From Parcubacteria group bacterium M10-OD1-1 (GTDB taxonomy: Bacteria > Patescibacteriota > Minisyncoccia > Moranbacterales > UBA2206): a DNA stretch of 64,000 nt. The stretch's first letter is position 1. Every line of letters begins with the position of its first letter. The translations under genes were made by a program, and so were the position numbers. The notes beneath the pieces were generated by a model. That model saw nothing but the letters and a program-made list of their open reading frames with translations. It did no database searches and had not been told where the DNA came from. Shown here piece after piece: positions 5,842 through 63,442 of the stretch. The stretch is taken from assembly GCA_003056145.1 (NCBI GenBank), contig LSNL01000001.1, positions 73,351 to 137,350 of the forward strand. Reading direction: 5' to 3'.

Positions 5842-5955
5842 GTAAAAAAATCAAAGCTGTTTATTTTTGTTTATTTTCAATACTACCAATCTTACCTTAG
5901 AATAAAAAAAATATCAACTACCAAACCATTTAAACAAAGAATTAAAGACAAAGCG

Positions 5956-8954: not shown

Positions 8955-9494
8955 TTTATTATGGGTGATTGTTATGCAAGACTTAATAAATGTTAACATA
9001 AATAATCTAAAATTAAAAGAAAAATCATTAAAGTCCTGAAGATAAATTTATAATTATTATATAAATAAACCTACCGATATTGTTTATCTTTAAAGGAAAT
9101 TTTATTTTTTAATTCCTAATATTTTTTATAAAATAATTAATTTGTGAATAACTAAATCTATTTACTGTGAAAGTTAGTTTTCTTTTGAAAAAAGAAAACT
9201 AACTAATTTAATATAAAAAGGTCTCAGTTACATTATAAAAAATTAAAAGTAGCCTAATTTAAATAAATCTAGCTATAAAATTACATAATAAGTAAAGTTC
9301 AGTTTAAAAATAAGGTCTCTCCTTAAGTTGGACGTTTTGCTTAAATAATTTATTTTTAAATAAAAAATATATTTGATCAATAAAGCTTAGTATTAAGGTA
9401 AAATATTGGTTAAGTTTTTTTAAATATGTTGTAGATAGGCTTTTCATGAAAAGATTTTTGTGGTGAAATACTAACAATACTCGAACCTATTTTG

Positions 9495-9678
9495 AAAAAA
9501 ACAACTAACAAATCGGAACATGCCTCGGTGCACCTTCGCATTGTTTTGTCTGCGAACGAAGTTTGCCTTGGTAAGGATATTGTAATCCGAGCGCGAACTT
9601 ATTTCGAGAACAATAGCTAGGAAGCGGAACGCTTCGCGTACTTTTTCTCGCGCTCTGCGAGCGTGAAGTTTTAATTTG
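9495..9678 (-). ncRNA. Candidate structured ncRNA (unidentified), GC-rich island immediately 3' of tRNA-Ala
   Basis: ~185 nt at ~50% GC in a ~28% GC background. Nested perfect hairpins: cgctc-tgc-gagcg, gaagcg-gaa-cgcttc, ttcgca-N10-tgcgaa, and the self-complementary ggtgcacc. The minus-strand sense ends in a U-run. Family and strand unresolved. Confidence 0.35.
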
Positions 9679-9751
9679 TGGACCTGAGGAGATTCGAACT
9701 CCTGACCTCTTCCATGCCATGGAAGCGCTCTACCAACTAAGCTACAGGCCC
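9679..9751 (-). tRNA. tRNA-Ala (GGC)
   Basis: Reverse complement GGGCCTGTAGCTTAGTTGGTAGAGCG-CTTCC-ATGGCAT-GGAAG-AGGTC-AGGAGTTCGAATCTCCT-CAGGTCC-A. G3:U70 Ala identity pair present. Confidence 0.8.
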
Positions 9752-10035
9752 ATCTTCTTTAGCATAAAAAATATAATAACTTCAGTCAAGAGCCTAAAAG
9801 TATAAGAAAGTTAAGTAAATTATGATTTTTACTTTGAGCTAAAAAACTGTTTAAAAAGAAGCAATGTGATATAATGAAATTAGTTTAAAAAAGAATTTTT
9901 TTATTAAGTAGTAGCAGAAATTAAATAAATAATAGGTTATAAGTTACCGAATAGAGGAAGGTCCAGTCTATTGGAATAAGGACTAGTATTAGTAAAGAAT
10001 AGAAATAGACTAAAAAATTTAAACAGAAATATATA

Positions 10036-12066
10036 ATGAGTGTCTCTAATTTTTTAAATAAACTTAAAACTAAACCAGATATATGGTTCTTTTCGGTTTT
10101 TTTATTGACTTTTACTCTTAATATTAGAAAAGTATTATTTTACTTTCCTCAACAAGGAACATTTAATGAATATACTGGAATATATGTTTATATGTCAGAT
10201 ATATTCTTATTATTAACCATAGGTTTATGGTTAATATCATTATATTACAATAATATATTTAAATTGTCAAGGGATAAGCTGTGGATAACTTATTTTTTCT
10301 CTAAAAAATATCTAATAATCCCCTTAGCTCTAGTTATATGGTCATTTATATCTATTTTTTGGTCTAGCTATCAGTCCATAGCTTTTTTTAGATCAATAAA
10401 GCTATTGGAATTTTACTTACTTTACTTATATGTAATTTTTAGATTTAGTCCTTTTTTCTTTATTAAACAAGACTATGATAATAAAATAAAGGAAGGGGAA
10501 AAAATATTAGAAGTTAACCAATTGAATGTACTGAAAAATGTTCCACGTGGAACATTTTTTAATTTTAAATATAAAGAAATAATCCGATATTTCTTTCTGA
10601 CGATTGTTGGTATAAGTGTAATTCAATCAATTATTGCCATTAATCAGGTAATTATTCAAAAATCAGTGGGTTTAGGCGCTTTGAGAGAAAGTTTTATATC
10701 TCCTAGCTTACCAGGAGTAGCTAAAGTGATTTTAGGAGGAGATAAATATATTAGAGCTTATGGTTTAATGCCTCATCCTAATATTTTAGGTGGTTTTTTG
10801 TTGTTTTCAATAGTAATAAGTCTACTCTACTTAAAATTGTTCCACGTGGAACAATTCGCTTTTGTTGAAAAAGGCGGGATGGCTTCAAAAAAGGATGGAA
10901 GTAAAAGTAATAGACTTGTCGGATTGAAAATGTTCCACGTGGAACATTTTCAAAAGAAAAGTAGTTTTTTTAACTCAGTAATGTTCCACGTGGAACATTT
11001 TAAGAAAAAATATTTTTCACCGCCTTCGTCTCAAGAACAAATTGTTCCACGTGGAACAATTTTAAGTAAAATCTGGCATGTAGTTAGATGGCGAGGTATG
11101 ATGAAAGTATGTTTTTTAGATAGCTACATTTTTATTAAAAAGTTTGTTAAAAAAGATAAATGGCTTATTAAAGCCTTTATTTTAATTCAAGTCCTAGCTC
11201 TTTTTTTAAGTTTCTCCAAATCGGCAATTATAGGTTTAGTTATTTCTTTAATTTATATTGTATATAAATTAAATGTTCCACGTGGAACATTTATATTGCA
11301 ATGGAAAAAAATAAGATTAGTAACTAGCTTAAGATATTTTCGCATATCAATACTGATGATATTAGTGATATGTTCCTTTATAATAATATTTCTAAAGCCA
11401 GATTTTAATACTGTATTTTTTCAATCATTACGAGAACGTTTATTTTATCTAAATGTTTCACGTGGAACAATTTTAAGTAGTCCGATTTTGGGAATTGGAT
11501 CAGGACAATTTGTGATAAATATCCCTTATTTCTCCCAAAATGTTGTTTTGCCTTGGGAATATCAACCAGTGCATAATGTTTTTCTACTGGTTTGGAGCGA
11601 ATTAGGAATAATTGGAGTAGTTTTGTTTTCTTGGTTTATTTTAAAATTGTTCCACGTGGAACAATTTAATTTGCTTAAAAAAGATAACTTAACTTCAAAG
11701 AAAGATGAAAATAAAAATAAAAAGTTCCTCGGATTAAAAATGTTCCACGTGGAACATTTTGAGAAAAAAGAATCATTATTGCATGTAGTTAAAGAGACAA
11801 TTGTTCCACGTGGAACAAATGAACATTTTGAAAAAAATAGGAATAAAGAAATTAATAGTATAGCTAAAAGAAACAAGAAAGATAATATATTATACAATAA
11901 GAATAGATATTTGTCAATGAATTATCTTCTTATTTATTTTCAGGGAATATTATTGGGTTTCGTTTTTATTATGCTTTTTGACCATTATTTGTGGGATATT
12001 CAGCAAGGTAGCGTCTTGTTTTGGCTAGTTTGCGGATTTATTGTTGGAAATAAGAAAGTGTGTTAA
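10036..12066 (+). CDS. O-antigen-ligase-like membrane protein carrying ten in-frame palindromic insertions and an internal duplication
   Basis: 676-aa uninterrupted ORF. N-terminus is polytopic membrane. Ligase motifs appear twice (MPHPNILGGFLLFS…LYLKLFHVEQF and PVHNVFLLVWSELGIIGVV…FILKLFHVEQF). The C-terminus resembles the neighbouring ligase paralogs. Confidence 0.5.
   Translation: MSVSNFLNKLKTKPDIWFFSVFLLTFTLNIRKVLFYFPQQGTFNEYTGIYVYMSDIFLLLTIGLWLISLYYNNIFKLSRDKLWITYFFSKKYLIIPLALVIWSFISIFWSSYQSIAFFRSIKLLEFYLLYLYVIFRFSPFFFIKQDYDNKIKEGEKILEVNQLNVLKNVPRGTFFNFKYKEIIRYFFLTIVGISVIQSIIAINQVIIQKSVGLGALRESFISPSLPGVAKVILGGDKYIRAYGLMPHPNILGGFLLFSIVISLLYLKLFHVEQFAFVEKGGMASKKDGSKSNRLVGLKMFHVEHFQKKSSFFNSVMFHVEHFKKKYFSPPSSQEQIVPRGTILSKIWHVVRWRGMMKVCFLDSYIFIKKFVKKDKWLIKAFILIQVLALFLSFSKSAIIGLVISLIYIVYKLNVPRGTFILQWKKIRLVTSLRYFRISILMILVICSFIIIFLKPDFNTVFFQSLRERLFYLNVSRGTILSSPILGIGSGQFVINIPYFSQNVVLPWEYQPVHNVFLLVWSELGIIGVVLFSWFILKLFHVEQFNLLKKDNLTSKKDENKNKKFLGLKMFHVEHFEKKESLLHVVKETIVPRGTNEHFEKNRNKEINSIAKRNKKDNILYNKNRYLSMNYLLIYFQGILLGFVFIMLFDHYLWDIQQGSVLFWLVCGFIVGNKKVC
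10534..11818. repeat. Ten dispersed copies of a 16-bp perfect palindrome TGTTCCACGTGGAACA inside one gene, often extended to 18-26 bp by A/T runs
   Basis: Cores at 10539, 10838, 10931, 10982, 11043, 11274, 11454 (variant gtttcac), 11648, 11741 and 11802. Spacing is irregular (59-300 bp). The palindrome has no stop in any frame, giving the peptide motifs VPRGT / FHVE(H/Q)F / CSTWN. Confidence 0.9.
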
Positions 12067-12089
12067 TCTTAAATTAATCTTATTTTAAG

Positions 12090-12183
12090 TAAGACTAAGA
12101 CTAAGACTAAGACTAAGACTAAGACTAAGACTAAGACTAAGACTAAGACTAAGACTAAGACTAAGACTAAGACTAAGACTAGA
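12090..12183. repeat. Hexanucleotide microsatellite (TAAGAC)x15.5
   Basis: Perfect tandem repeat directly visible in the sequence, starting 24 bp after the stop of the palindrome-bearing gene and ~110 bp upstream of the next ORF. Confidence 0.95.
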
Positions 12184-12293
12184 TTTTAGATGTCTTAGTG
12201 AATAAAATTATTTGTTTTTAATTTTAAATATAATTATTTTTTAGAGAGCTATCATTTTTTTCAAGTTCTTTATAGAGATTACCATAATTCAGG

Positions 12294-13496
12294 ATGGATA
12301 GAGATTATTATCGAAATATTCCCCTTTTGTATATTTACAGTATATTTATTAAGCGGGTTTCGCAACCTATTATTATTTTATATTTTTTGCTTAATAGGTT
12401 GAGTTTTGCTCAAATAGGGATATTAGCTGCGACAACGCTTGTTGTTCAGATGACGACAGATATTTATGGAGGGATATTTGCAGATACTTATGGAAGAAAA
12501 GCTACACTTTTATTACATTCGGTTTTCGGGGCTATAACGATGTTATTTTATTTTATTGGAAATTCTTTTCCGTGGTTCTTTTTAGCAAGTATTATGTATG
12601 GAATTGCTGGGGCATTTATAACTGGGACAAGAAATTCCATTCTTTATGATACACTAATAAAACTTAATAGGGTGGTTGAATTTAAAAAATTCAATGGAAG
12701 AGTTTTGTTATATTCACATATAATCAATGCTTTAGTGCTTTTAATGATTCCTGTTATGTATACTTTTAACGTTAAATTGCCATTTCTTTTTGGTATTGGA
12801 TTTTTTCTGATTTCATTTATTCTGGCGCTTTTCTTTATTGAACCGCAGTTGGAAAAAAAATCAGAGAGGGCTTTACCAGTGTATGGTACTAAAATTATTG
12901 AAGCGTTAAGAGAAATTAAGCTAAATAAAAAATTGATAATTGCTATTCTTCTTTCTATGTTTACAGCTTCTTTTATTTTTATGGGAGTTGGATATATACA
13001 GCCTCTTTTGAAAATTTCTAAATTACAAGTTGTTTATTTTGGTGTTGTTTATGCATTAATGAGTGGATTAATGGGGATTGGTGGACTGATTACGCATAAA
13101 CTAGAAAAGTACTTTACTCAAGAAAGATTATTAATTTTGGGGCTCGGAGGTATTACTATAAGCTTTTTGGGATTTTCCTTTAGTGTAGGAGTAGGGATTA
13201 TCTTGGCTGTTTTAATATTGAAACTTTCTGAAGGTTTTAATCGGATTATATTAGAAGATGAGATTAATAAAAATATAGAGTCAAAGAATAGAACGACAAT
13301 TTTATCTGTGACTAGTTTATCCAAAACGCTGGCTACTAGTGGATTAATACTTATTTTTGGTTTTATTTCAGATTTAGTTGGTGTTCAGCATATGTTTAAC
13401 TATGCCTTAGGATTATTTTTTGTTATAATTATTGTAACTTGGATTCTTGTTAATAATATTAAACGAGCGAAAAGAAGAGAATATGGCGTAAATTGA
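12294..13496 (+). CDS. Major facilitator superfamily transporter
   Basis: ~11-12 TM segments. MFS motif A GGIFADTYGRKATLL lies between TM2 and TM3. The exact start is uncertain. Confidence 0.6.
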   Translation: MDRDYYRNIPLLYIYSIFIKRVSQPIIILYFLLNRLSFAQIGILAATTLVVQMTTDIYGGIFADTYGRKATLLLHSVFGAITMLFYFIGNSFPWFFLASIMYGIAGAFITGTRNSILYDTLIKLNRVVEFKKFNGRVLLYSHIINALVLLMIPVMYTFNVKLPFLFGIGFFLISFILALFFIEPQLEKKSERALPVYGTKIIEALREIKLNKKLIIAILLSMFTASFIFMGVGYIQPLLKISKLQVVYFGVVYALMSGLMGIGGLITHKLEKYFTQERLLILGLGGITISFLGFSFSVGVGIILAVLILKLSEGFNRIILEDEINKNIESKNRTTILSVTSLSKTLATSGLILIFGFISDLVGVQHMFNYALGLFFVIIIVTWILVNNIKRAKRREYGVN

Positions 13497-13510
13497 ATTA
13501 AAAATATTTT

Positions 13511-13900
13511 ATGAATATACCTATAAAAGCCGTAAAGGCGGTAATAATTAATAGCAAAAGGGAAATATTATTATTACGGAGAAATCTTAAAATACGTGAA
13601 CGATCCAGTTGGGATTTACCAGGAGGCTTGATTGAAAAAAATGAAGATGAAAAAAATGCGTTAAAGAGAGAGGTTATGGAAGAGTTAGGTGTGGAAATTA
13701 AAGTAATTAAAGTTGGAAAAACTTGGAATTTTTTTCGTTCGTTAGATGAAAAATGGGTAAGTGTTCAAAACTATAGTTGTAAAATTATTAACGGAACAAT
13801 ATTTTTGAGTGACGAACATATTGCTTATAAATGGGTTAATAAGAAGGAAGTTAGAAAATATCCAGTCAAAGACAAGAGTTTTTTTAATGCAATAGAATAA
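13511..13900 (+). CDS. NUDIX hydrolase
   Basis: Nudix box GGLIEKNEDEKNALKREVMEELGV (Gx5Ex7REUxEExGU). Confidence 0.7.
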   Translation: MNIPIKAVKAVIINSKREILLLRRNLKIRERSSWDLPGGLIEKNEDEKNALKREVMEELGVEIKVIKVGKTWNFFRSLDEKWVSVQNYSCKIINGTIFLSDEHIAYKWVNKKEVRKYPVKDKSFFNAIE

Positions 13901-13943
13901 ATGTTTTATAAAACTAAGCAAAGGCAGTAGGAATTTTATAAAT

Positions 13944-13976
13944 AAAAAACACTTCTGTGATTAAGAAGTGTTTTTT
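13944..13976. terminator. Bidirectional intrinsic terminator
   Basis: aaaaacacttc-tgtgatta-gaagtgttttt: perfect stem flanked by an A-run and a T-run, between the convergent NUDIX (+) and gyrA (-) genes. Confidence 0.65.
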
Positions 13977-14009
13977 GGTAATAAATTTAAAGTTGAACTA
14001 GTAAATAAA

Positions 14010-16466
14010 TTAAAGTGCTGTGCTGGCAGAAACCTTATCTCCTTTTTGTGGTTTCATAACGCGTACTCCTTGAGTTGCTCGACCGAGAACAGAGACACTT
14101 TTTAAGGGGATACGAATTATTTGCCCTTTTTCTGAGGTTAAAATTAAATCTTCTTCTAATTTGTCGATATTAATAATACTAGCACCAATTAATTTTCCAG
14201 TTCTGGCTGTTAAGGAGGCAGTTTTAATTCCGCTTCCTCCTCTTTTCTGAATTTTGTAAGCTTTTAAGTTAGTTCTTTTGCCATACCCATTCTCAGAAAT
14301 AACTAATAATTGATTGCCTTCTTGTTTTTTTAATACAACATCCATACTAATTACCTGATCATCTTTTTTTAATTTAATACTACGAACTCCAGCAGCTGAT
14401 CTCCCCATAGAGCGTACGTCACTTTCCTTAAAGCGAATAGCTTGACCATTTTTAGTAGAAATCATTACTTCATCAGTGCCAGTTGTTGTATTAACCCAAC
14501 GAAGAGCATCACCTTTTTCAATTTTAATGGCTATAAGTCCAGAACGACGAACATTATTAAATTCTTCAATGGTTGTTTTTTTAATAGTTCCCATTTCAGT
14601 GGTCATAATAAGATATTTACAAATATCCTTTTTATTAAAAGCAACAATGGCTGTTATATTTTCTTCTTGTGAGAGGGAAAGAAAATTAATAATAGATTGT
14701 CCTTTGGCGGTGCGAGATGATTCAGGTATTTCATAAGCCTTAGTCTGAAAAACTTTCCCTGTATTAGTAAAGAATAACATATTATCATGAGACATAACGC
14801 TTAAAACTTTTTGAATAACGTCACCCTCTCTAGTGGTGGCTCCAATAACACCTTTTCCTCCGCGTTTTTGAACTTTATAAACTGATGGATTCATTCTTTT
14901 AATGTAATCATCTTTAGAAATAGTAATGATAGCTTCTACATTAGGAATAAGATCTTCTTGTCTGAATTCTCCAATTCCAGATTTTATTACTTTAGTTTTT
15001 CTTTCATCTCCATACTTTTCTTTAATTCTTAAAAGTTCATCTTTAACAATTTTAAGAATTTTTGTTGGGCTTTTGAGAATTTCTTTTAATTGAGCGATTA
15101 GTTTTAGTTTTTCTTTTAATTCATCTTCTATTTTTTTTCTTTCTAATCCAGCTAATGTTTGCAAACGCATTTCTAAGATAGCTGAGGTTTGCGCTTCTGA
15201 TAATTTAAATTTTTTCATTAAATTAACATAAGCTACTTCTTTAGTAGGAGATTTTTTAATAGTTTCTATAACTTCATCAATATGATCTAAAGCTTTTTTT
15301 AATCCTTCTAAAATATGGGCTCTGTCTAAGGCTTTTTGTAAATCAAATTTAGTTCTTCTTGTGATGACAATTTTTCGATGAGCAATATATTCTTCTAAAA
15401 CTGATTTTAAATTCATTACTTGAGGTGCAATGCCATCGATTAAAGCTAACATATTAACTCCAAAATTCTTTTGCAAATCAGTTAAAGAATAAAGTTTATT
15501 AAGAACTTTTTGAGGATAAGCGTCTTTTTTAAGATCAATAACAACACGAACACCATCTTTATCAGACTCGTCTCGAAGATTTTTAATGCCAAAGATTTTT
15601 CCATTAATCACTAAATCAGCTAATTTCTCTAGTAGTGCAGCTTTATTAGTAGCGTAAGTCATTTCAGTAACTATTATTTGGAAGGTGCCAGTTTTAGTCT
15701 CAATGATATCGACTTTTCCTCGAGTAACAATTTTACCTCGTCCAGTTTTGTAGGCTTCTAAAATATCTTTTTTATTATAGATAATTCCTCCAGTTGGAAA
15801 ATCAGGTCCTTGAATAAATTTCATTAAGTCTTCAATAGTAGCTTGAGGATTATCAATAAGGTGATTAACTCCGTCAATAACTTCAGAAATATTATGAGGA
15901 GGAATATTAGTAGCCATTCCAACGGCAATACCCATAGAACCATTAAGCAGTAATTGAGGAAGTCCAGCCGGAAGAACGGTCGGTTCCTTATGTTGTCCGT
16001 CAAAGTTTGGAATAAAATCAACAGTATCTTTTTCAATATCTTGAAGCATCTCTTCGGCGATAGCAGAAAGCTTAGCTTCAGTATAACGGTAAGCAGCTGC
16101 ACTATCACCGTCCATAGACCCGAAGTTTCCTTGTCCTTTAACAAGCGGGTAACGAAGAGAAAAATATTGGGCCATTCTAACCATAGATTCATAAACAGCA
16201 CTATCTCCGTGAGGGTGGTATTTTCCAAGAACTTCACCAACTACGGTAGCAGATTTTCGAAATTTAGAATTAGCTCGTAGCCCAGAGCTCCACATAGAGT
16301 AAAGAATTCTTCGGTGGACTGGTTTTAACCCATCACGAACATCAGGAAGAGCTCGAGATACAATTACGCTCATAGCATAATCTAAATAAGATTGTTGTAT
16401 TTCAGCGGTAATTTCTTGACCTTGAATATGTTCTAACTCAAGCTTGTTTTCTGTTTTTCTAGTCAT
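14010..16466 (-). CDS. gyrA: DNA gyrase subunit A
   Basis: 818 aa. Active-site region [11 protein letters not shown] and GyrA-box QKRGGKG present. C-terminal beta-pinwheel repeats. Confidence 0.9.
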
Positions 16467-16506
16467 ATTTTTAATTTGAAATTTAAAGTTTTATTGTTTA
16501 ATTCTT

Positions 16507-42468: not shown

Positions 42469-43542
42469 GTGCTTCTATTTTTAATTAAAATAAAAAATAA
42501 AAAAATGTTTTCAGATAATAAAACTACTTCTAATAATAATTTTAAATCCAAAAAAAAAATAAATTTAGTGCAAGATACTAAAATTCATACTATGGAAAAA
42601 GATTTATTTGAATCTAAAAATCCTACCAATACTTCTCAAACAGAATTAGAGGCAACCGTCAATAAACAAAAAAAAACAAACTTAGAATATGAAACTAATA
42701 ATTCGCAAGAAATCAGCCCTTTTCTAAAAGGAGAAGAGAAAATAATTGATAAAAATCAATTTTCAACAATTCCTGATCAACAAAATCAGCCAATGAAAAC
42801 CAAATCAGTTCTTAATAAAATTATAATTATTATAGTGATTAGTATTAGTATTATAGGTATTGGTGGAGGTAGTTTTTATTTTTGGAAAACTAGAATAAGT
42901 AATACTAAAAAGATTAAAAACGCTAATGATCAGCTTGGCAAATCTTTAGAAAATACACCAACTAATAATTTATCTGAGTTCTCAATAGATAAAGCTAATT
43001 ATTTAAGTTTGGATTTTAATAAAGATAATAAAGAGCAAATTTTAAGTATTCTTCAAAAATATGTAAAAAAGATTGCAACCTTAAAAACAATTGCTCCAGT
43101 AGAATTTATTCTAACTAACTCTCAGAATAATCCGATTTCTTTTCAAGATTTTGCTCAGAAAGTAAATTTAACATTGTCAAAAAATTTAATTGATCAATTA
43201 GGTACTAATTTTAGCTTGTTTATTTATAATGATAATGGGAATGTCAGACTTGGTTTAGCAATTGCTACTAATAATAGTCAAGAAGTGAAAAATCTTTTAT
43301 TAAAAGAAGAAGATAATCTTCCTCAAGAAATTCAATTTCTTTTCTTAGGCAAAGATACTAGCGGATTAAAAGAAGCTTCATTTAGTCTAGGAAAGTATCA
43401 AGGGTTAAATATTAGATATTATAATGTTGTTTCACCAGAAATTTTGTCAATAGATTATACTATTTATAAAAACCAATGGTTAGTTGGAACAACCAAGATG
43501 ACATTGAGGTCTATTGTTAACTATATTAGTAAGCAAGGATAG
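42469..43542 (+). CDS. Hypothetical membrane-anchored protein
   Basis: K/N-rich N-terminus, one TM (IIIIIVISISIIGIGGG), extracytoplasmic domain of unknown function. Confidence 0.35.
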   Translation: MLLFLIKIKNKKMFSDNKTTSNNNFKSKKKINLVQDTKIHTMEKDLFESKNPTNTSQTELEATVNKQKKTNLEYETNNSQEISPFLKGEEKIIDKNQFSTIPDQQNQPMKTKSVLNKIIIIIVISISIIGIGGGSFYFWKTRISNTKKIKNANDQLGKSLENTPTNNLSEFSIDKANYLSLDFNKDNKEQILSILQKYVKKIATLKTIAPVEFILTNSQNNPISFQDFAQKVNLTLSKNLIDQLGTNFSLFIYNDNGNVRLGLAIATNNSQEVKNLLLKEEDNLPQEIQFLFLGKDTSGLKEASFSLGKYQGLNIRYYNVVSPEILSIDYTIYKNQWLVGTTKMTLRSIVNYISKQG

Positions 43543-53080: not shown

Positions 53081-54877
53081 ATGAATAAAATAATCTATCA
53101 TAAAAATGTACAACGATTTTTAGCGATTTTTTTCGTGTCTATCTTGATATTTTCTTCTTCTAACAAAATATTTTCTTTTAAAGCTGATTTTATTCCTGTC
53201 GCTCACGCAGCAGCAGTAAATCAATCAGCCTCTCAAAGAAAGGCTAGTTTAAATAATTCTTGTAGTGCTTTGAATTGGACTTCTGGCAATGCTTTAAATT
53301 GTGCTCTATTAAAAATCTTATATTTAGATGGAAAAATTATTCAAGCTTCTGCTACTCTTTTTGAATGGGTTATTGAACCAAAGACGATGATGACTATAAT
53401 TGATAACCCAATTATTTATTCTACATGGGCTTTAGTAAGAGACACCTTGAATATTTTATTTATTTTAGTCTTGCTTTTTTCGGCTTTTGCTACGGTGTTT
53501 CAAGTGGATAAATATAGTTATAAAAAAATACTTTTAACTCTAGTCATTATGGCTCTTTTGGTTAATTTTAGTTTTCCGATTTCTAGATTTATAATTGATG
53601 TTGCTAATTCTATGATGTATTATTTAATCAATAATTTAGGGGGTGGGGCTGGATCTTTTGCTCAAATTGCGAATTCTGGAGGATTGCTTAATATTATCCA
53701 TCCAGCAGATATGCCAGATTTAACTAATCTAATTAGTGCTATCATATTTGGCTTTATCTTTGCTATTACTTTAATGATTATCGCTGTTCTTTTTTTAATT
53801 AGAAGTATAGCTTTGGCAATTTTGATTATTTTTTCTTCAGTAGCTTTTATTGGAGCAATTGCTCCTTTTTCGGCTTCTTACGCTGATAAATGGTGGGATA
53901 AGCTTTTTGAATATGCTTTTTTCGGACCAATCATGATTTTTATGATTTATGTTTCTGTGGAGTTTATGAATAAAATAAGCACTTCTGCTAATGGGACAAT
54001 GAAGGCGATCGCTGCTAATCAAAGCTTAGATTCAAGCTTTGTATCTTCTATTGCATTTTTTATGATTCCGTTAGTAATACTCTGGATTGGAATTGGTATG
54101 GCTCAATCATTTAATATTGCTGGAGCTAAAAAGGTTACCGATAAAGCTCATAAATATGCTAGAGTAGCCTTAAATGCTCCGTGGCAAGCAACAGGAATTC
54201 CTGGAGGATTTAAAAAAGCCAAAGACCATTATATTCGTAAAGGAGCTCCTGGATTTTTGGGTAAAATTCCTGGATTACGTGGAGATGAAAAAACTAAATC
54301 AACTGAAGCTTGGATAGCAGGAAAATTAGGTGTTACCGGTTCTCAGGAGCAAGACATTAAGAAGCGAGCGTCTGAAATGGATAAAAGTAACGAGTCCGTA
54401 GAAAGTTTAAGAGAGCAAGCTAGGAGTGGTAATATAGCGGCAATCTATCGATTGTCCGAAATGGGAATAATTGAAAAAGAAGAGTTTACGATTGCTATGA
54501 ATAAAACTAGAGATCAAAAAGTTAGAGAAATGCTTGAAAATACAACTAGAAAGAAAAGAGCTGATGTGGTGGTTGATTCCAAAATTCAACAAGCTGAGCA
54601 AAGAGCAGGGCATAATTTAACAGAAGCAGAAAGAATCAATATCGCTCAAAATGAGATTGGTAAGCTTTCTACTGATCAGTGGAAGAATCAAAATATGGAG
54701 AAATTACTCGGTTACGATAGGGAAAGTCAATCTTATTCAATAGATGCAAATACTATTGCTAGACGACAAGCAACTGAAAATTATTATCAAAACAGTAATG
54801 CACAACGACGGCAAACAATGGTTAGAGATATGAATGGAAACAATTATGCTGCTTCGTCAGGAGTGGGGATTATTTAA
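53081..54877 (+). CDS. VirB6/TrbL-like polytopic membrane protein (type IV secretion-like)
   Basis: Signal peptide, ~6 TM helices in the middle, hydrophilic C-terminal third. Architecture and placement upstream of VirB3/VirB4-like genes fit VirB6/TrbL. No strong sequence motif. Confidence 0.4.
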   Translation: MNKIIYHKNVQRFLAIFFVSILIFSSSNKIFSFKADFIPVAHAAAVNQSASQRKASLNNSCSALNWTSGNALNCALLKILYLDGKIIQASATLFEWVIEPKTMMTIIDNPIIYSTWALVRDTLNILFILVLLFSAFATVFQVDKYSYKKILLTLVIMALLVNFSFPISRFIIDVANSMMYYLINNLGGGAGSFAQIANSGGLLNIIHPADMPDLTNLISAIIFGFIFAITLMIIAVLFLIRSIALAILIIFSSVAFIGAIAPFSASYADKWWDKLFEYAFFGPIMIFMIYVSVEFMNKISTSANGTMKAIAANQSLDSSFVSSIAFFMIPLVILWIGIGMAQSFNIAGAKKVTDKAHKYARVALNAPWQATGIPGGFKKAKDHYIRKGAPGFLGKIPGLRGDEKTKSTEAWIAGKLGVTGSQEQDIKKRASEMDKSNESVESLREQARSGNIAAIYRLSEMGIIEKEEFTIAMNKTRDQKVREMLENTTRKKRADVVVDSKIQQAEQRAGHNLTEAERINIAQNEIGKLSTDQWKNQNMEKLLGYDRESQSYSIDANTIARRQATENYYQNSNAQRRQTMVRDMNGNNYAASSGVGII

Positions 54878-54894: not shown

Positions 54895-56427
54895 ATGAAA
54901 AAGATTAGTTTCACAAAATTAGACCAAGAAATACAAATTAAAAGGTGTACTATACCTCAACATGTTTCAGTTACAAAAAATCCTGATGATGAAAATTATA
55001 GCCAAATTGTAGAAAGACAGAATAAATTTTTGACGTTGACTATTCCGATAAGAAATAAATTATCAGCTCCTGAAACAGGAGAAACAATCCAAAGAATTGG
55101 TAAAACTTTTTCTTTAGATCTTTTACAAATAGCGGTTATTGCTAGAATGGTAAGAAGTTTCTATTTTGGTGAGATAAAATTAGAAGATTTTCCAAATTTA
55201 TTAGCTAAAGAATTCAAGATGGATCTTATCCAAGCTAAGAAAATTTCTCAAATAGTAATAAATAAAATAATTAATGACCAAACGCAAGAGGAAGAATACC
55301 AGTCTAGCTTAGAAAAAATTACTCTTCAAGAAGCACTAAAAAAATATCCTAAATTGGCAGATCAATTAATTACTAAAAATCATATTGAATTAGATAATTA
55401 TCCAGCACCAGTTCGTCCGTCGTTGAAAAATTGGTTAGCTGATTATACTTTCACGATAGGACATAATTCGCCAACAGCTATGGATAGAGGAATATATTTA
55501 TTTCAGAATAAGAATACTAAATCTTTATTGGCCAAAGAAAGACAAAAATTAGCTTACCTTTTTAAATCTTATGACGAGAAAGCATTTATTACCGTAGATA
55601 CTAATAATAATCAAATTGTTTTTCCTCAAAAGAATATTTTATCGAGAGGAGATAAAAAAGAAAATAATGAGAAAGCAGAAAGAGAAACGGGAGGAAAAGA
55701 AACAAAATGGTCAGTTAATTCTCAAGAAAAAATAAAAAATTATATTGAGCCGAAAGATATTTTTCAAACTGAAAAAAATAAAAAAATTATAGAAGGAGAA
55801 AAGAAAATTATTCAAAAAACCCCAGAAGAAGAATTGGGAGTAAAAGAAAATCAGCTAGCCAATAGTCCACTAGTGGCTAAGTTATTAGCTTCTGATCATT
55901 CAGACTCTACCTTGCCTAAGCCTAATTTTGCAATCAGTAAAAATGCAAAGCTAACTACTCAATCTTCAGTTGGTTCGTCTTTGCCAGTTAAAAAATCAAT
56001 GGATTCTTTTAATAAATCTCTTAATCTAAGTAAAAAAACTTCAGCTAAAATAGTCTCTCCTGAAAATAATTTAGAAAAAACTATTAATTTTAGTCAAAAA
56101 CCAAATTTAAAAACAAATAAAAATAATTTATCAATTCCAAAAAAACCAATCAATGATTTGCCGGATCAGCAAATTTCTAAAATTGAATTTACCACTCATC
56201 AGAAAATGCCTTTTGAAGAGAAAGATGAAAATTCAGTTGTTAAAAATATTTCTCCAGAGCCAGTAGTTAAAAAAACTCCGCAACCAATGAGAATAGCTCC
56301 TAGAAATTTTAAAAATCAATTTACAGAAAAACCACAATCAATAGAAGCTAAAAATAATAAAATAATCAATAATAATTCTCCTGTTTCAGTTAACCCTAAA
56401 AATATCGTTAATCTTAAAGAAAAATAA
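54895..56427 (+). CDS. Hypothetical low-complexity K/N/S-rich protein
   Basis: 510-aa ORF, structured N-terminal ~200 aa and disordered C-terminal half. Confidence 0.35.
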   Translation: MKKISFTKLDQEIQIKRCTIPQHVSVTKNPDDENYSQIVERQNKFLTLTIPIRNKLSAPETGETIQRIGKTFSLDLLQIAVIARMVRSFYFGEIKLEDFPNLLAKEFKMDLIQAKKISQIVINKIINDQTQEEEYQSSLEKITLQEALKKYPKLADQLITKNHIELDNYPAPVRPSLKNWLADYTFTIGHNSPTAMDRGIYLFQNKNTKSLLAKERQKLAYLFKSYDEKAFITVDTNNNQIVFPQKNILSRGDKKENNEKAERETGGKETKWSVNSQEKIKNYIEPKDIFQTEKNKKIIEGEKKIIQKTPEEELGVKENQLANSPLVAKLLASDHSDSTLPKPNFAISKNAKLTTQSSVGSSLPVKKSMDSFNKSLNLSKKTSAKIVSPENNLEKTINFSQKPNLKTNKNNLSIPKKPINDLPDQQISKIEFTTHQKMPFEEKDENSVVKNISPEPVVKKTPQPMRIAPRNFKNQFTEKPQSIEAKNNKIINNNSPVSVNPKNIVNLKEK

Positions 56428-57667: not shown

Positions 57668-59491
57668 ATGTTAAATATATTTAAAAAAAATCAAAATCAA
57701 AAAAAATCTCAACCAGTTGACGAAGTTTTAGAGAGTGAAAGATACTATCAAGAAGGAGTGTCTAAGTTAAATGATTTAATTGCTCCAGCTGCGATAAAAA
57801 TCAATTCTCGCAATATTAGAGTAGGAGAAACGTTAGTACAAACAATTTTTGTAATTGCTTATCCTAGATTTCTACATAGTAATTGGTTCTCTCCAATTAT
57901 TAATATTGATATGCCTATTGATATTTCAATGTTTATCCATCCAGTAGATACTTATGACATTTTAAAGACTCTTAAGAAGAATGCTACTAGAGTGGAGTCA
58001 CAAATCCACATAGAACAACAAAAAGGAATGATTAATGATCCAGCTTTGGAAACAGCAGTACAAGATATTGATGAATTGAGAAGTAATCTTCAGCAAGGAA
58101 CCGAAAAGTTTTTCCGTTTTGGTTTATATATTACTGTTTATGGTGAAAATGAAAAAGATTTAAATGAAGCTACTCATTCTATAGAAGCTATTTTAGAAGC
58201 TCAATTAGTGTATGTTAAACCGGCTATTTTTAAATCCGAACAGGGTTTTAATTCTACTTTACCACTCGCTAACGATGAATTAGATATTGGGACTAGTATG
58301 AATAGTTCTCCTCTTTCTACTACTTTTCCTTTTGTTTCCTCTACTCTTTCTACTAATAAAGGTATTCTTTATGGTATTAACCGACATAATAATAGTTTAG
58401 TGATTTTCGATCGTTTTGAGATGGAGAATGCTAATATGGTAGTTTTTGCTAAATCAGGAGCTGGAAAAAGTTATACTGTTAAATTAGAAATTTTAAGGTC
58501 GCTAATGTTGGGAACTAATGTAGTAATTATTGATCCAGAAAATGAATACAAACATCTTTGTGAGACAGTTGGAGGAACTTTTATTAAAATATCGCTTAAC
58601 TCAAAAAATCATTTAAACCCTTTTGATTTACCAAAAATTAAAGATGATGAAGATCCAGAAGATGTTTTAAGAAATAATATCGCTAGTTTGCTGGGATTAT
58701 TACATAGTATGCTAGGAAATATTACTCCAGAAGAAGATTCTATTTTAGATAGAGCGGTGAGAGAAACTTACGCTATTCGGGATATAACCGCTCAAACTGA
58801 TTTTAACTCTATTTCTAGAGAAGCTTATCCGACGATGTCAGATTTATATCAGGTTTTGCAAAGTATGGAAGGAGGAGAGGATTTATCTATTCGGCTAGAA
58901 AAATATACGGAAGGGGTTTTTGCTGGTTTTTTAAATAACACAACTAATGTTAAAATTGATAATCAAATGGTAGTTTTTAATATTCGGGATATGGGAGAAG
59001 AGTTGCGTCCTATTGCAATGTACATTGTGATGCAATTTATTTGGAATGAGATGAGAACTAATTTAAAAAGAAGATTGGTGTTAGTAGATGAGGCGTGGGT
59101 GATGATGAAATATGATGACGCAGCTTCTTTTATGTTTGGAATTGCGAAACGATGTCGTAAATATTATACTGGATTAACGACAATTACTCAGGATGTAGGA
59201 GATTTTCTGTCTTCTCGTTACGGGAAAGCGATTGTAACGAACTCTTCTATTCAATTATTATTAAAACAATCCACCGCTGCGATTGATATGGTTAGTGAAA
59301 CATTTTATTTAACTGATCAAGAAAGATTTTTATTGTTAGAAAGTAATATCGGAGAAGGGATTTTTTTTGCCGGTACTAAACATGTGGCTATTAAAGTAGT
59401 TGCTTCCTATTCAGAAGACCAAATAATTACTACTGATCCAGCTCAGTTAATGAAAATTGATCAGGCTAAAAAAGAATTTAGTGAAGAATAA
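57668..59491 (+). CDS. virB4: Type IV secretion ATPase VirB4/TraC/TrsE family (ATPase domain)
   Basis: Walker A VVFAKSGAGKSYTVK, VIIDPENEY, Walker B RRLVLVDEAWVMM (DEAW) and the C-terminal VirB4 sensor region. Confidence 0.75.
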   Translation: MLNIFKKNQNQKKSQPVDEVLESERYYQEGVSKLNDLIAPAAIKINSRNIRVGETLVQTIFVIAYPRFLHSNWFSPIINIDMPIDISMFIHPVDTYDILKTLKKNATRVESQIHIEQQKGMINDPALETAVQDIDELRSNLQQGTEKFFRFGLYITVYGENEKDLNEATHSIEAILEAQLVYVKPAIFKSEQGFNSTLPLANDELDIGTSMNSSPLSTTFPFVSSTLSTNKGILYGINRHNNSLVIFDRFEMENANMVVFAKSGAGKSYTVKLEILRSLMLGTNVVIIDPENEYKHLCETVGGTFIKISLNSKNHLNPFDLPKIKDDEDPEDVLRNNIASLLGLLHSMLGNITPEEDSILDRAVRETYAIRDITAQTDFNSISREAYPTMSDLYQVLQSMEGGEDLSIRLEKYTEGVFAGFLNNTTNVKIDNQMVVFNIRDMGEELRPIAMYIVMQFIWNEMRTNLKRRLVLVDEAWVMMKYDDAASFMFGIAKRCRKYYTGLTTITQDVGDFLSSRYGKAIVTNSSIQLLLKQSTAAIDMVSETFYLTDQERFLLLESNIGEGIFFAGTKHVAIKVVASYSEDQIITTDPAQLMKIDQAKKEFSEE

Positions 59492-60832: not shown

Positions 60833-63442
60833 ATGAAAAAAAAGATAAAAAAAATTAATAGGACGGAGAGAATACTCATGGGAGTAATTAAAAGTTTTTT
60901 TATTTTCTTAATCTCTCTTTTTATGTTTAGTCCTTCAGTGCAAGCTTGGGATTTGACTAGCTTTGGTGGAGGAGATGTCAACGGAGTAATGGATTCAGCT
61001 ATGAATAACTTAGGAGTTAATAAGACAGAATTAAAATATGGTATTCAATCTTTCAATGTTTCTCGGAAAAAGAAAACACCACCTCAAGTAACACTGACTT
61101 TTAATCCTCGCAATCCATCTCCTGGACAAAAAATTACTGCGGTAGCTACAACGACTTACTTTCTTAATGAATCAAAAAATTTATACTTTACTTGGTTTTT
61201 AAAAACAAAAAATTGTCCTCGGACAAGTACTCCTGACTCTATAGAAAAAAAGCAATGTGATTTAAATAAAGATGGACGGGTAGATATTGCAGATTACAAA
61301 ATTAAAGCTACGAGAATTATTGTTAATAATGGTTTTGATTGGGAAGATGCTAATTATTCTAGAGATAATAGTAATGATAGCTATAAAGCTAATTTTGGAG
61401 GAGATGATCAAGGAGGAAAAACTTCTTATTGTTATATTCACGATACGAAAGGTGGCGATGAGTATCGGATTAAATGTGCTCACCTTTTTCCTCATGCGCC
61501 AGGAGAAGTAACAGGTGATGGTTCTTTTGGAATTAAAGAAGAAAAATTTTGGCATACTGATCCTAACAGTCCTGATACAGCTGGAACGGGAAATGTAGAC
61601 GAAGCTAATGTGGCTGGACTTGGAATAAAACAGTTTACTTGGAATTATGAAACTGGTGATGAAGTAGGGGTAGTAGTAGAAGGTGTTTCTATTGAATCTA
61701 CTCAAACAGCTGATGCTTCTTACCGAACTATGTGGGCAATGCCTAAAAGTATGTGCGATGTAAGTCCAATCATTAAAAATTTTCCTAAAAAAACTACTAA
61801 TACTATATCTCAATCAACTAATTCTCCTTCGGAAGGAGAAACAACTACAGTAACTCAGACGACTAATCAAACTATCCAGAGTAGAGCAGCTAATATTGCT
61901 AGTATAGAGACTGTGGTTACAACTACAACGACAGTAACCAATTCATTGACTGGTAATGTTATTTCTCAAAGTTCAACTTCAACCACACCTACTTATTCTG
62001 TTTCTAATATTTCAGATGATATATCAGTTAATAATATAAAAAGTGCTTCTGATTTAAATAACTGCTTATATGCTAATTTAGTCAGTCCAACAGCAGTAGG
62101 TAAAAATGGGAGAAAAATTAATGTTTCACTTTCTTATTCTCCAGAAACTCCAATGAATGATCCAAAAGTTAATTCTAACTCGGGAGATACGGTTATTGTG
62201 CAAGCTTCACTTGACGACATAAGCGATACCAGTTATCTAAATTATTTTTGGCAAGTTTATCAAAGCGATGAAGCTAATCCAGATAGTTGGGGAAAACCTT
62301 TGTTGAAATCTGCTTTGCCTGATTCTACTCAGACAACAGGTCTAGGTTTAGATTCTTTTGAGTTTAAACTAAATTTTCCTCATCCGAAAAAATATTTTCG
62401 GGTTAAGTTAACAGTAACTGAGCCAACATCAGGAGGAACTAGCAGAGAAGGACATACTGATATAATTATTCCTATTGCTTCAGTGAATAATAGAATGCAA
62501 GTTTTTTCGGCTAATGTTTCTAAATCATTGCAATTAAATATGCAAGGAACAGAACAATGTACTGCTGGTATAAACAAAGTTGTTTGTTCAGTTGCTAAGA
62601 ATGAAATCATTGGAATTAAAGTTGATGCTAATAATTTATCTAATTATGCTTGGTCAATTGATGGAAAACCTTTTACTTATCAAACTTGTTTTTTCCAGGG
62701 TTGTAATTTAAATCAAGAAACTAATGTAGCTTATTTCCCCGTTGTAAAAGAAGTAGGAGAAGAATTTAATATTTCTTTGGTAGCTACTAATCAAGTAAGT
62801 GGACAGAAAATAAATTTAATCCGAACATTTAAAGTGGCTGATCCCCAAATAAAAATTCTTTCTGCTGATACTAAAACTTGTAAACCAGTTTTACTTGGTC
62901 ACTACATTGATTTTAACGGTAAACAATGGCCAGATTATAGTCAAATAAATTTTTGGGCGTTATCCAGCAGTCCAATTAAATTAATGGCGTTAACCTCTGG
63001 AGCTTATATTCCACCAACTGATTATAACTGGGTTGTGGATGGTAATTCTATCAATCAAAATAATGTTGGAAAATATGGATTTAAATTAGATAAAAATGGT
63101 GTTTTAACTTTACCACCTAAACCAAGTAATCAAAGTTATAATGTAGGGGTAAGCGTTTTATATACGCAAAATAATTTAACGAAAAAAGCCTTAAATAAAT
63201 ATTGGGGAGTTTCTTATGATCAGTTTTATGAAAAGCCAATTGCAGATAATATTAATGTTATAATGCAAAAAATTAAACCAAAAGCAGTTGCTCAATCTTC
63301 CAGTAAAAAAATTATGGCGACTCTTTTTTCGGCAGTTCCAGCTTACATAGCTTTTATTCTAAGAATAATTTTGACCATATTTTTAATGTTAGTTACGGCC
63401 TCTTTAGTATTCTCATTATCTTCAAAAATAAAAAATGAATAA
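60833..63442 (+). CDS. Large (869 aa) surface protein with signal peptide and C-terminal TM anchor
   Basis: N-terminal signal (…SPSVQAWD), T/S/N-rich extracellular body, C-terminal hydrophobic anchor (VPAYIAFILRIILTIFLMLVTASLVF). Confidence 0.45.
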   Translation: MKKKIKKINRTERILMGVIKSFFIFLISLFMFSPSVQAWDLTSFGGGDVNGVMDSAMNNLGVNKTELKYGIQSFNVSRKKKTPPQVTLTFNPRNPSPGQKITAVATTTYFLNESKNLYFTWFLKTKNCPRTSTPDSIEKKQCDLNKDGRVDIADYKIKATRIIVNNGFDWEDANYSRDNSNDSYKANFGGDDQGGKTSYCYIHDTKGGDEYRIKCAHLFPHAPGEVTGDGSFGIKEEKFWHTDPNSPDTAGTGNVDEANVAGLGIKQFTWNYETGDEVGVVVEGVSIESTQTADASYRTMWAMPKSMCDVSPIIKNFPKKTTNTISQSTNSPSEGETTTVTQTTNQTIQSRAANIASIETVVTTTTTVTNSLTGNVISQSSTSTTPTYSVSNISDDISVNNIKSASDLNNCLYANLVSPTAVGKNGRKINVSLSYSPETPMNDPKVNSNSGDTVIVQASLDDISDTSYLNYFWQVYQSDEANPDSWGKPLLKSALPDSTQTTGLGLDSFEFKLNFPHPKKYFRVKLTVTEPTSGGTSREGHTDIIIPIASVNNRMQVFSANVSKSLQLNMQGTEQCTAGINKVVCSVAKNEIIGIKVDANNLSNYAWSIDGKPFTYQTCFFQGCNLNQETNVAYFPVVKEVGEEFNISLVATNQVSGQKINLIRTFKVADPQIKILSADTKTCKPVLLGHYIDFNGKQWPDYSQINFWALSSSPIKLMALTSGAYIPPTDYNWVVDGNSINQNNVGKYGFKLDKNGVLTLPPKPSNQSYNVGVSVLYTQNNLTKKALNKYWGVSYDQFYEKPIADNINVIMQKIKPKAVAQSSSKKIMATLFSAVPAYIAFILRIILTIFLMLVTASLVFSLSSKIKNE

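Follow-up and report, generated by a model that had tools for sequence, protein, structure and literature searches.

A hexanucleotide microsatellite built from TAAGAC units lies within a 227-bp spacer that separates a Wzy_C/O-antigen-ligase-like gene from an MFS transporter gene (Table 1). The surrounding window, which is the whole 64-kb stretch of DNA analysed here, has a G+C content of about 30% and encodes bacterial PNPase, FtsH and UvrD together with a LysM-SLT protein. Its GyrA shares 79-83% identity with proteins annotated as Candidatus Moranbacteria, Pacebacteria and Parcubacteria, and on these sequence comparisons the host, which is uncultured, can be placed as a Candidatus Moranbacteria-like CPR/Patescibacteria bacterium. 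The first-pass annotation had located the repeat between a palindrome-laden gene and an MFS transporter, and the gene map agrees with this: the array begins 24 nt past the Wzy_C stop codon (TAA, 12064-66), and 112 nt separate its end from the MFS start codon (ATG, 12294). That start codon is backed by an N-terminus, M-x-x-x-YYRNIPLLY, which is conserved in homologs. A search of the MFS_1 protein against NCBIfam gave no subfamily match above cutoff. The NUDIX gene begins 14 nt past the MFS gene and is followed by a convergent gyrA; the MFS and NUDIX genes are probably co-transcribed. No ORF of at least 40 aa overlaps the array on either strand, no regulator gene adjoining the array was seen among its neighbours in the window, and Rfam finds only tRNAs in the window.

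Table 1. Features at and around the TAAGAC array. Positions refer to the window, except in the last row, which refers to the contig of a relative.
Feature	Position	Strand	Basis or remark
Wzy_C (O-antigen ligase/polymerase-like) membrane protein, 676 aa	10036..12066	+	Pfam PF04932, E=2e-14
Two degenerate inverted unit copies in the left flank, AATCTTA at 12065-71 and 12076-82 (complement of TAAGATT)	12065..12082	+	Sequence
(TAAGAC)x15.3 hexanucleotide microsatellite	12090..12181	.	Perfect, 92 nt, intergenic (TRF, sequence, census)
GTCTTAGT, inverted unit copy, 10 nt past the array	12192..12199	+	Sequence and hairpin fold
TATAAT, lone perfect -10 hexamer between the array and the MFS gene	12229..12234	+	Own scan, below tool-scan threshold
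MFS_1 transporter, 400 aa	12294..13496	+	Pfam PF07690, E=3e-22
NUDIX (MutT-like) hydrolase, 129 aa	13511..13900	+	Domain and gene-order comparison (L135, L133, L137)
Heptamer repeats in L137	5902-5938 and 2943-2972		

The Wzy_C gene that precedes the array is one of three Wzy_C-family paralogs in the window (10036..12066 and 381-2858), two of which stand in tandem. All 10 copies of a 14-nt palindrome, GTTCCACGTGGAAC, that occur in the window lie inside this gene (10540-11816; 0 expected), where they are in frame and encode FHVE(Q/H)F or VPRGT. They look as if palindromes had been inserted in frame, in the manner of Rickettsia palindromic elements, and several of them score as terminator-like hairpins. 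The encoded protein measures 676 aa here, as against 541 and 758 aa in relatives. The 3' part of the gene also carries an antisense 12/12 sigma-70 consensus (TTGACA-17-TATAAT) on the minus strand at 11889-11917, a match of which about 0.2 per window would arise by chance on a rough estimate. The gene had been described as hypervariable, but Wzy variants in the strains available differ by just 1-2 amino acids in 676, which speaks against that description. Between the window and the assembly GCA_003056095.1 (L001), five of the seven SNPs in 9234-16496 fall in the Wzy gene and none in the MFS or NUDIX genes; one of the SNPs is H304Q, which lies inside a palindrome-encoded motif.

TRF reports the microsatellite as one perfect period-6 array (100% matches, score 184), and the raw sequence agrees over the full length. 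The repeat had been given as a perfect 93-bp (TAAGAC)x15 tract ending at 12183. Its perfection holds, with 15.3 copies, whereas the end had been set 2 nt too far, because 15 full units are followed by T and A and then by a mismatching G. Searching the 64-kb window with TAAGACTAAGAC at no more than one mismatch returns 14 matches, all within the array, where shuffles lead one to expect 0.41; the same search finds no other TAAGAC tract in the window. A census of perfect repeats identifies the array as the sole multi-base simple repeat of the window, accompanied by just five A/T homopolymers of 9-10 nt, and these A/T runs apart, the 64 kb hold no second contingency-type simple-sequence repeat (SSR) locus. 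Genomes that rely on contingency loci have several SSR loci, typically at surface-structure genes, and the window differs from them in this respect. In its length and perfection, the array is the kind of slippage-prone tract found at SSR contingency loci. Two NCBI assemblies contain it, as do the Logan assemblies of five independent runs, and its existence is no assembly artefact.

Gene order in relatives indicates how the spacer arose. In L135 (GCA_031291955.1), the series FtsH-TilS-Cmk-S1-lactamase_B-x-gyrA is followed directly by a convergent Wzy_C gene, with the gene for the CCA-adding enzyme further on. The window has the same order, except that the MFS and NUDIX genes stand between Wzy and gyrA, and two further relatives carry other accessory genes at this place. 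Because Wzy and gyrA are either adjacent or split by other genes in relatives, the MFS-NUDIX pair is best read as a lineage-specific insertion. The array would thus sit at the upstream junction of this insertion, and the spacer appears to be young, lineage-specific DNA. Homologs of the MFS protein come mostly from DPANN archaea and other CPR bacteria and are found in unrelated gene contexts, including those of 59-71% identity, so that the transporter was presumably acquired horizontally. The many homologs labelled DPANN archaea suggest that the transfer crossed domains. The regions upstream of the homologs contain no SSR and no DNA that can be aligned with the array spacer, and the exact right flank of the array has 0 matches in JGI metagenomes, where the species is absent.

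Two observations concern the upstream regions of genes in these other genomes. MFS homologs of 68-71% identity in L127 (1355-1430), L128 (2933-3010) and L129 have a conserved box, GTTAAGCGACATATTACTCGCCC, in common upstream; after it, about 30 nt before the ATG, comes an archaeal TATA-like motif, TTTATATA. L137 (Logan ERR14788458), a relative whose GyrA is 82% identical, has a heptamer repeat, AAAGCTA x5.3 (5902-5938), immediately ahead of a + strand lactamase_B gene. The complement of this unit (x4.3, 2943-2972) immediately precedes an S1-domain gene on the - strand, in the same orientation relative to the gene.

A comparison of copy number across strains had been proposed, and the assemblies provide one. 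In the run SRR32234002 (L002), the tract reads AAG, 4 x TAAGAC, TAAAAC, TAAGAC, 2 x TAAAAC, TAAGAC, TAG, which amounts to nine units, three of which carry a G>A interruption; the window has no fewer than 15, all perfect. The two tracts thus differ by three substitutions and six units of length, compared with one SNP in the remaining 2.16 kb (2,160 nt). The nine-unit allele is considered real because an interrupted tract can be resolved at k=31. Exactly one k-mer (31 nt) separates the start of its contig from the first variant base, which points to a branch in the assembly graph and hence, by this reasoning, to a second allele in SRR32234002. Copy number therefore varies among very close strains, as counted in assemblies rather than reads, and the tract appears to be hypermutable, with length and sequence changing far faster than the flanks.

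Other assemblies require more care, as de Bruijn assembly shortens any perfect array that exceeds k, leaving the smallest in-phase length of at least k. GCA_003056095.1 has identical flanks and just 5.3 units (32 nt). This five-copy array was rejected as a second allele, as 32 nt is the collapse length for k=27-32, and it probably reflects a collapse of k-mers. The rejection also rests on L140, a Logan contig (k=31) that encodes the Wzy variant of GCA_003056095.1 and breaks inside the array. L140 is one of four Logan contigs built at k=31 (SRR6439370, SRR6439371, SRR14803397 and SRR14803398), all of which end after exactly 30 nt of array; this is the outcome of a k-mer cycle, so the array must exceed 36 nt in those four samples. 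The same logic applies to the window, whose 92 nt fit a collapse at k=87-92 and are therefore strictly a lower bound.

The array had also been assigned to the promoter/5' region of the MFS gene, but an overlap with a promoter is not borne out. It lies between no -35/-10 pair, and a scan of the + strand from the Wzy stop to the MFS ATG gives no sigma-70 match of at least 9/12, a result to be read in the light of how poorly CPR promoters are known. Canonical 11/12 sigma-70 promoters are present before other genes of the same genome. A looser scan yields only two pairs of 7-8/12, whose -35 is drawn from the last repeat unit or from the array edge. The lone perfect -10 hexamer listed in Table 1 lies 48 bp downstream of the array and has a poor -35 (ATTATT/TTATTT, 2/6); it is a candidate MFS promoter, which would put the array at about -55 to -150. 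No consensus promoter was found just upstream of the array. No terminator-like hairpin was found between Wzy and MFS, and read-through from Wzy may therefore transcribe the array.

The predicted RNA fold of 12050-12300 has a minimum free energy no better than shuffles (z=0.28), and it is in this fold that the two AATCTTA copies of the left flank pair with array units. Downstream, GTCTTAGT can pair with ACTAAGAC of any unit to give an 8-bp stem and is the sole complementary segment, and the corresponding DNA hairpin is weak (-5 kcal/mol, z=-1.6, matched by 14/200 shuffles). A terminator or attenuator hairpin formed by the array and GTCTTAGT was considered and rejected, because the stem is 8 bp long, is not significant and is not followed by a T-run. 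The idea that the MFS mRNA is special for missing a Shine-Dalgarno sequence was likewise rejected, as nearly all genes here lack one: in the 30 nt before each start across the whole window, a Shine-Dalgarno-like motif precedes almost no gene, and the upstream regions are just A/T-rich.

These results bear on the suggestion that the array mediates phase variation by slippage. The tract is real and mutable, as the nine-unit allele attests, but translational ON/OFF switching is excluded because the array lies in no ORF and its 6-nt unit would keep the frame. An ON/OFF switch would need a repeat that either lies in an ORF and has a unit that is no multiple of 3, or falls across the interval between a -35 and a -10; the array does neither. 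Because it lies outside every ORF and upstream of the MFS core promoter region, we infer that it is no ON/OFF switch. Transcription could still be affected, since CPR promoters are poorly known, and a graded effect of distance or leader length on the MFS and NUDIX genes is possible.

The repeat had further been called rare. This is true of the 64-kb window, where it is unique, but in other genomes, arrays of four or more TAAGAC units are present at over 120 sites. When 185,579 species-representative genomes were scanned for (TAAGAC)x4, at least 120 stretches came to light, in many phyla. The 129 arrays among the matches listed are 5.8 units long at the median and reach 17.7 at most, and 63% of the TAAGAC arrays lie outside any 100-codon open frame. 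The arrays among the matches listed range from 4 to 18 copies and share no common flanks, and many grade into TAAGAT or TGAGAC-like hexamers; the 15 copies found here stand at the long end of that range. Because more than 120 unrelated arrays exist and their flanks are not shared, TAAGAC is best regarded as a recurrent microsatellite that arises independently.

Two of these arrays belong to another CPR genome, Candidatus Magasanikbacteria MJ-time_bin-2094, which has 8 copies in L011 (3578-3667) and 8.5 copies in L091 (3670-3761). Both occupy short spacers between co-directional genes, with the first unit placed within the upstream stop codon. In L011, the array gives way to inverted units, GTCTTGATCTTAATCTTAATCTT, immediately ahead of the next ATG, and a long hairpin is possible there. 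The arrays resemble the one described here in their unit, their short spacers and their occurrence in a CPR genome. They differ in that their flanks have no homology to those of the present array, they begin inside the upstream stop codon, and one has inverted units. Their position before genes is a weak hint of a recurrent or preferred location. A literature search returned nothing relevant on the TAAGAC repeat sequence or on the assembly and run accessions, and no paper linking simple-sequence repeats or phase variation to Patescibacteria.

The reading that best accommodates these findings, to which we give a probability of about 0.58, is that the array is a slippage-prone intergenic microsatellite, most likely with little or no selected function and at most a role in graded tuning. 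Units of 6 bp would be gained and lost through slipped-strand mispairing during replication, and substitutions would build up in the array much faster than in its flanks. The length polymorphism would then most likely be a by-product of this mutability. Any effect would act in cis and by degrees on the transcription that enters MFS-NUDIX: array length would alter the distance to the MFS start from upstream DNA, or from Wzy read-through, and, should the spacer be transcribed, also how long the intercistronic RNA is. The array has the properties of a neutral microsatellite or VNTR, as it is non-coding and polymorphic, lacks conserved flanking signals and is built from a unit that arises independently elsewhere. 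Neutral VNTR/MLVA markers are intergenic tandem repeats with strain-dependent copy number and no demonstrated phenotype; classical VNTRs mostly have longer units (9-100 bp) and imperfect copies. The array is like them in its intergenic position, in a copy number that differs between close strains and in its usability as a strain marker, and it is unlike most of them in being a perfect hexamer. Two features count against a neutral reading. Long neutral tracts usually decay, and the uninterrupted 92 nt suggest either recent expansion or selection for purity. A site just before a gene and after a surface-polysaccharide gene is also typical of contingency loci, and the array occupies such a site.

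A second reading, possible but distinctly less probable, is that the array is a contingency or 'volume-control' locus, in which its length would set the expression of the MFS and NUDIX genes heritably and reversibly, so that cells with differing transporter levels are maintained. Known volume-control examples are hmw1A (ATCTTTC)n, uspA2 (AGAT)n and nadA (TAAA)n. In Neisseria meningitidis nadA, Moraxella catarrhalis uspA2 (AGAT)n and Mycoplasma gallisepticum vlhA (GAA)n, the SSRs lie outside the -35/-10 spacer and tune transcription; these tracts adjoin mapped promoters and known regulator sites, and their hosts are host-adapted pathogens with many SSR loci. The TAAGAC array is like them in lying outside a -35/-10 spacer, but it is the single SSR locus in 64 kb, has only a candidate promoter and has no adjacent regulator. 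In Haemophilus influenzae hmw1A/hmw2A, the (ATCTTTC)n tract is an intergenic SSR whose lengthening gradually lowers expression; it is transcribed in the 5' UTR and forms a long hairpin, made of 10 repeats and a G-rich arm, that RNase III cuts, so that intergenic SSRs can act through the 5' UTR (PMC12721329). Like the hmw tract, the TAAGAC array precedes a gene, has a multi-base unit that causes no frameshift and consists of tens of nucleotides of perfect repeat whose length varies. Compared with hmw, the array lacks a complementary arm longer than 8 bp, and the gene downstream encodes a transporter and not an adhesin.

Several observations favour such a locus. The tract is perfect, long and different between strains that are about 99.9% identical, and 112 bp without a terminator separate it from the MFS ATG downstream. 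Its distance from the lone good -10 hexamer falls in the range of about -55 to -150, from which upstream tracts are known to modulate promoters. The Magasanikbacteria arrays, too, directly precede genes. Against it stand the lack of any promoter element overlapping the array, the lack of a long complementary arm (the spacer holds no long stable hairpin of the hmw type, the sole arm being the non-significant one of 8 bp), the status of the array as the only SSR in 64 kb and the nature of the target, which is a generic MFS/NUDIX pair and no surface antigen. The more specific claim that the array works as a contingency or rheostat locus, tuning a transporter shared with DPANN archaea in an ultrasmall CPR (Moranbacteria-like) episymbiont, is rather unlikely. 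If it were true, it would be the first such case in Patescibacteria as far as the literature search shows, and hexamer arrays before CPR genes, also those of Magasanikbacteria, would represent a recurrent regulatory device. Tuning of the MFS/NUDIX pair would further mean that genome-reduced CPR bacteria, which have few regulators, share the slippage-based stochastic regulation of host-adapted pathogens.

A third reading takes up the location of the array, at the left junction of an insertion missing from relatives: it would be a scar or by-product of the MFS+NUDIX insertion, for example through slippage seeded at a recombination junction, with no present function. The degenerate inverted unit copies in the flanks and the occurrence of MFS homologs in unrelated contexts and DPANN archaea, which points to horizontal transfer, agree with such an origin. 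The other junction, in the NUDIX-gyrA spacer, does not, as it has no recombinase, direct repeats or matching array, and the upstream region has no homology to other MFS loci. This origin is improbable as a separate account, and it overlaps the reading as a slippage-prone microsatellite without excluding it.

A regular tract placed upstream of a gene is also what one would expect of sites for a DNA- or RNA-binding protein, one per 6- or 12-nt unit, with occupancy scaling with copy number. This is very unlikely, given that no neighbouring gene encodes a regulator, the window contains the motif only in this array and TAAGAC arrays are found in unrelated phyla that have no common regulator. Least credible of all is that the array or its length is an artefact of assembly or sequencing: lengths in de Bruijn assemblies are unreliable, as the exact collapse length in GCA_003056095.1, the break in L140 and the equally good fit of the window's 92 nt to a collapse indicate, but recovery of the tract in two NCBI assemblies and five independent runs, together with an interrupted allele that is resolvable at k=31, confines the doubt to exact copy number and not to existence.

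If the array does nothing but mutate, it still allows strains of this Moranbacteria-like population to be told apart conveniently, and it warns that short-read assemblies misreport its length.

Two further observations were made elsewhere in the window. An A10 homopolymer at 42550-42559 lies near the 5' end of the ORF 42469..43542, which has a GTG start, and is possibly a frameshift-prone tract or a sign that the start codon was miscalled. At 57668-59491, a TraG/VirB4-like P-loop ATPase is encoded among large ORFs that have no Pfam match (53081..54877, 54895..56427 and 60833..63442), and the cluster around it may be type IV secretion or conjugation-like.
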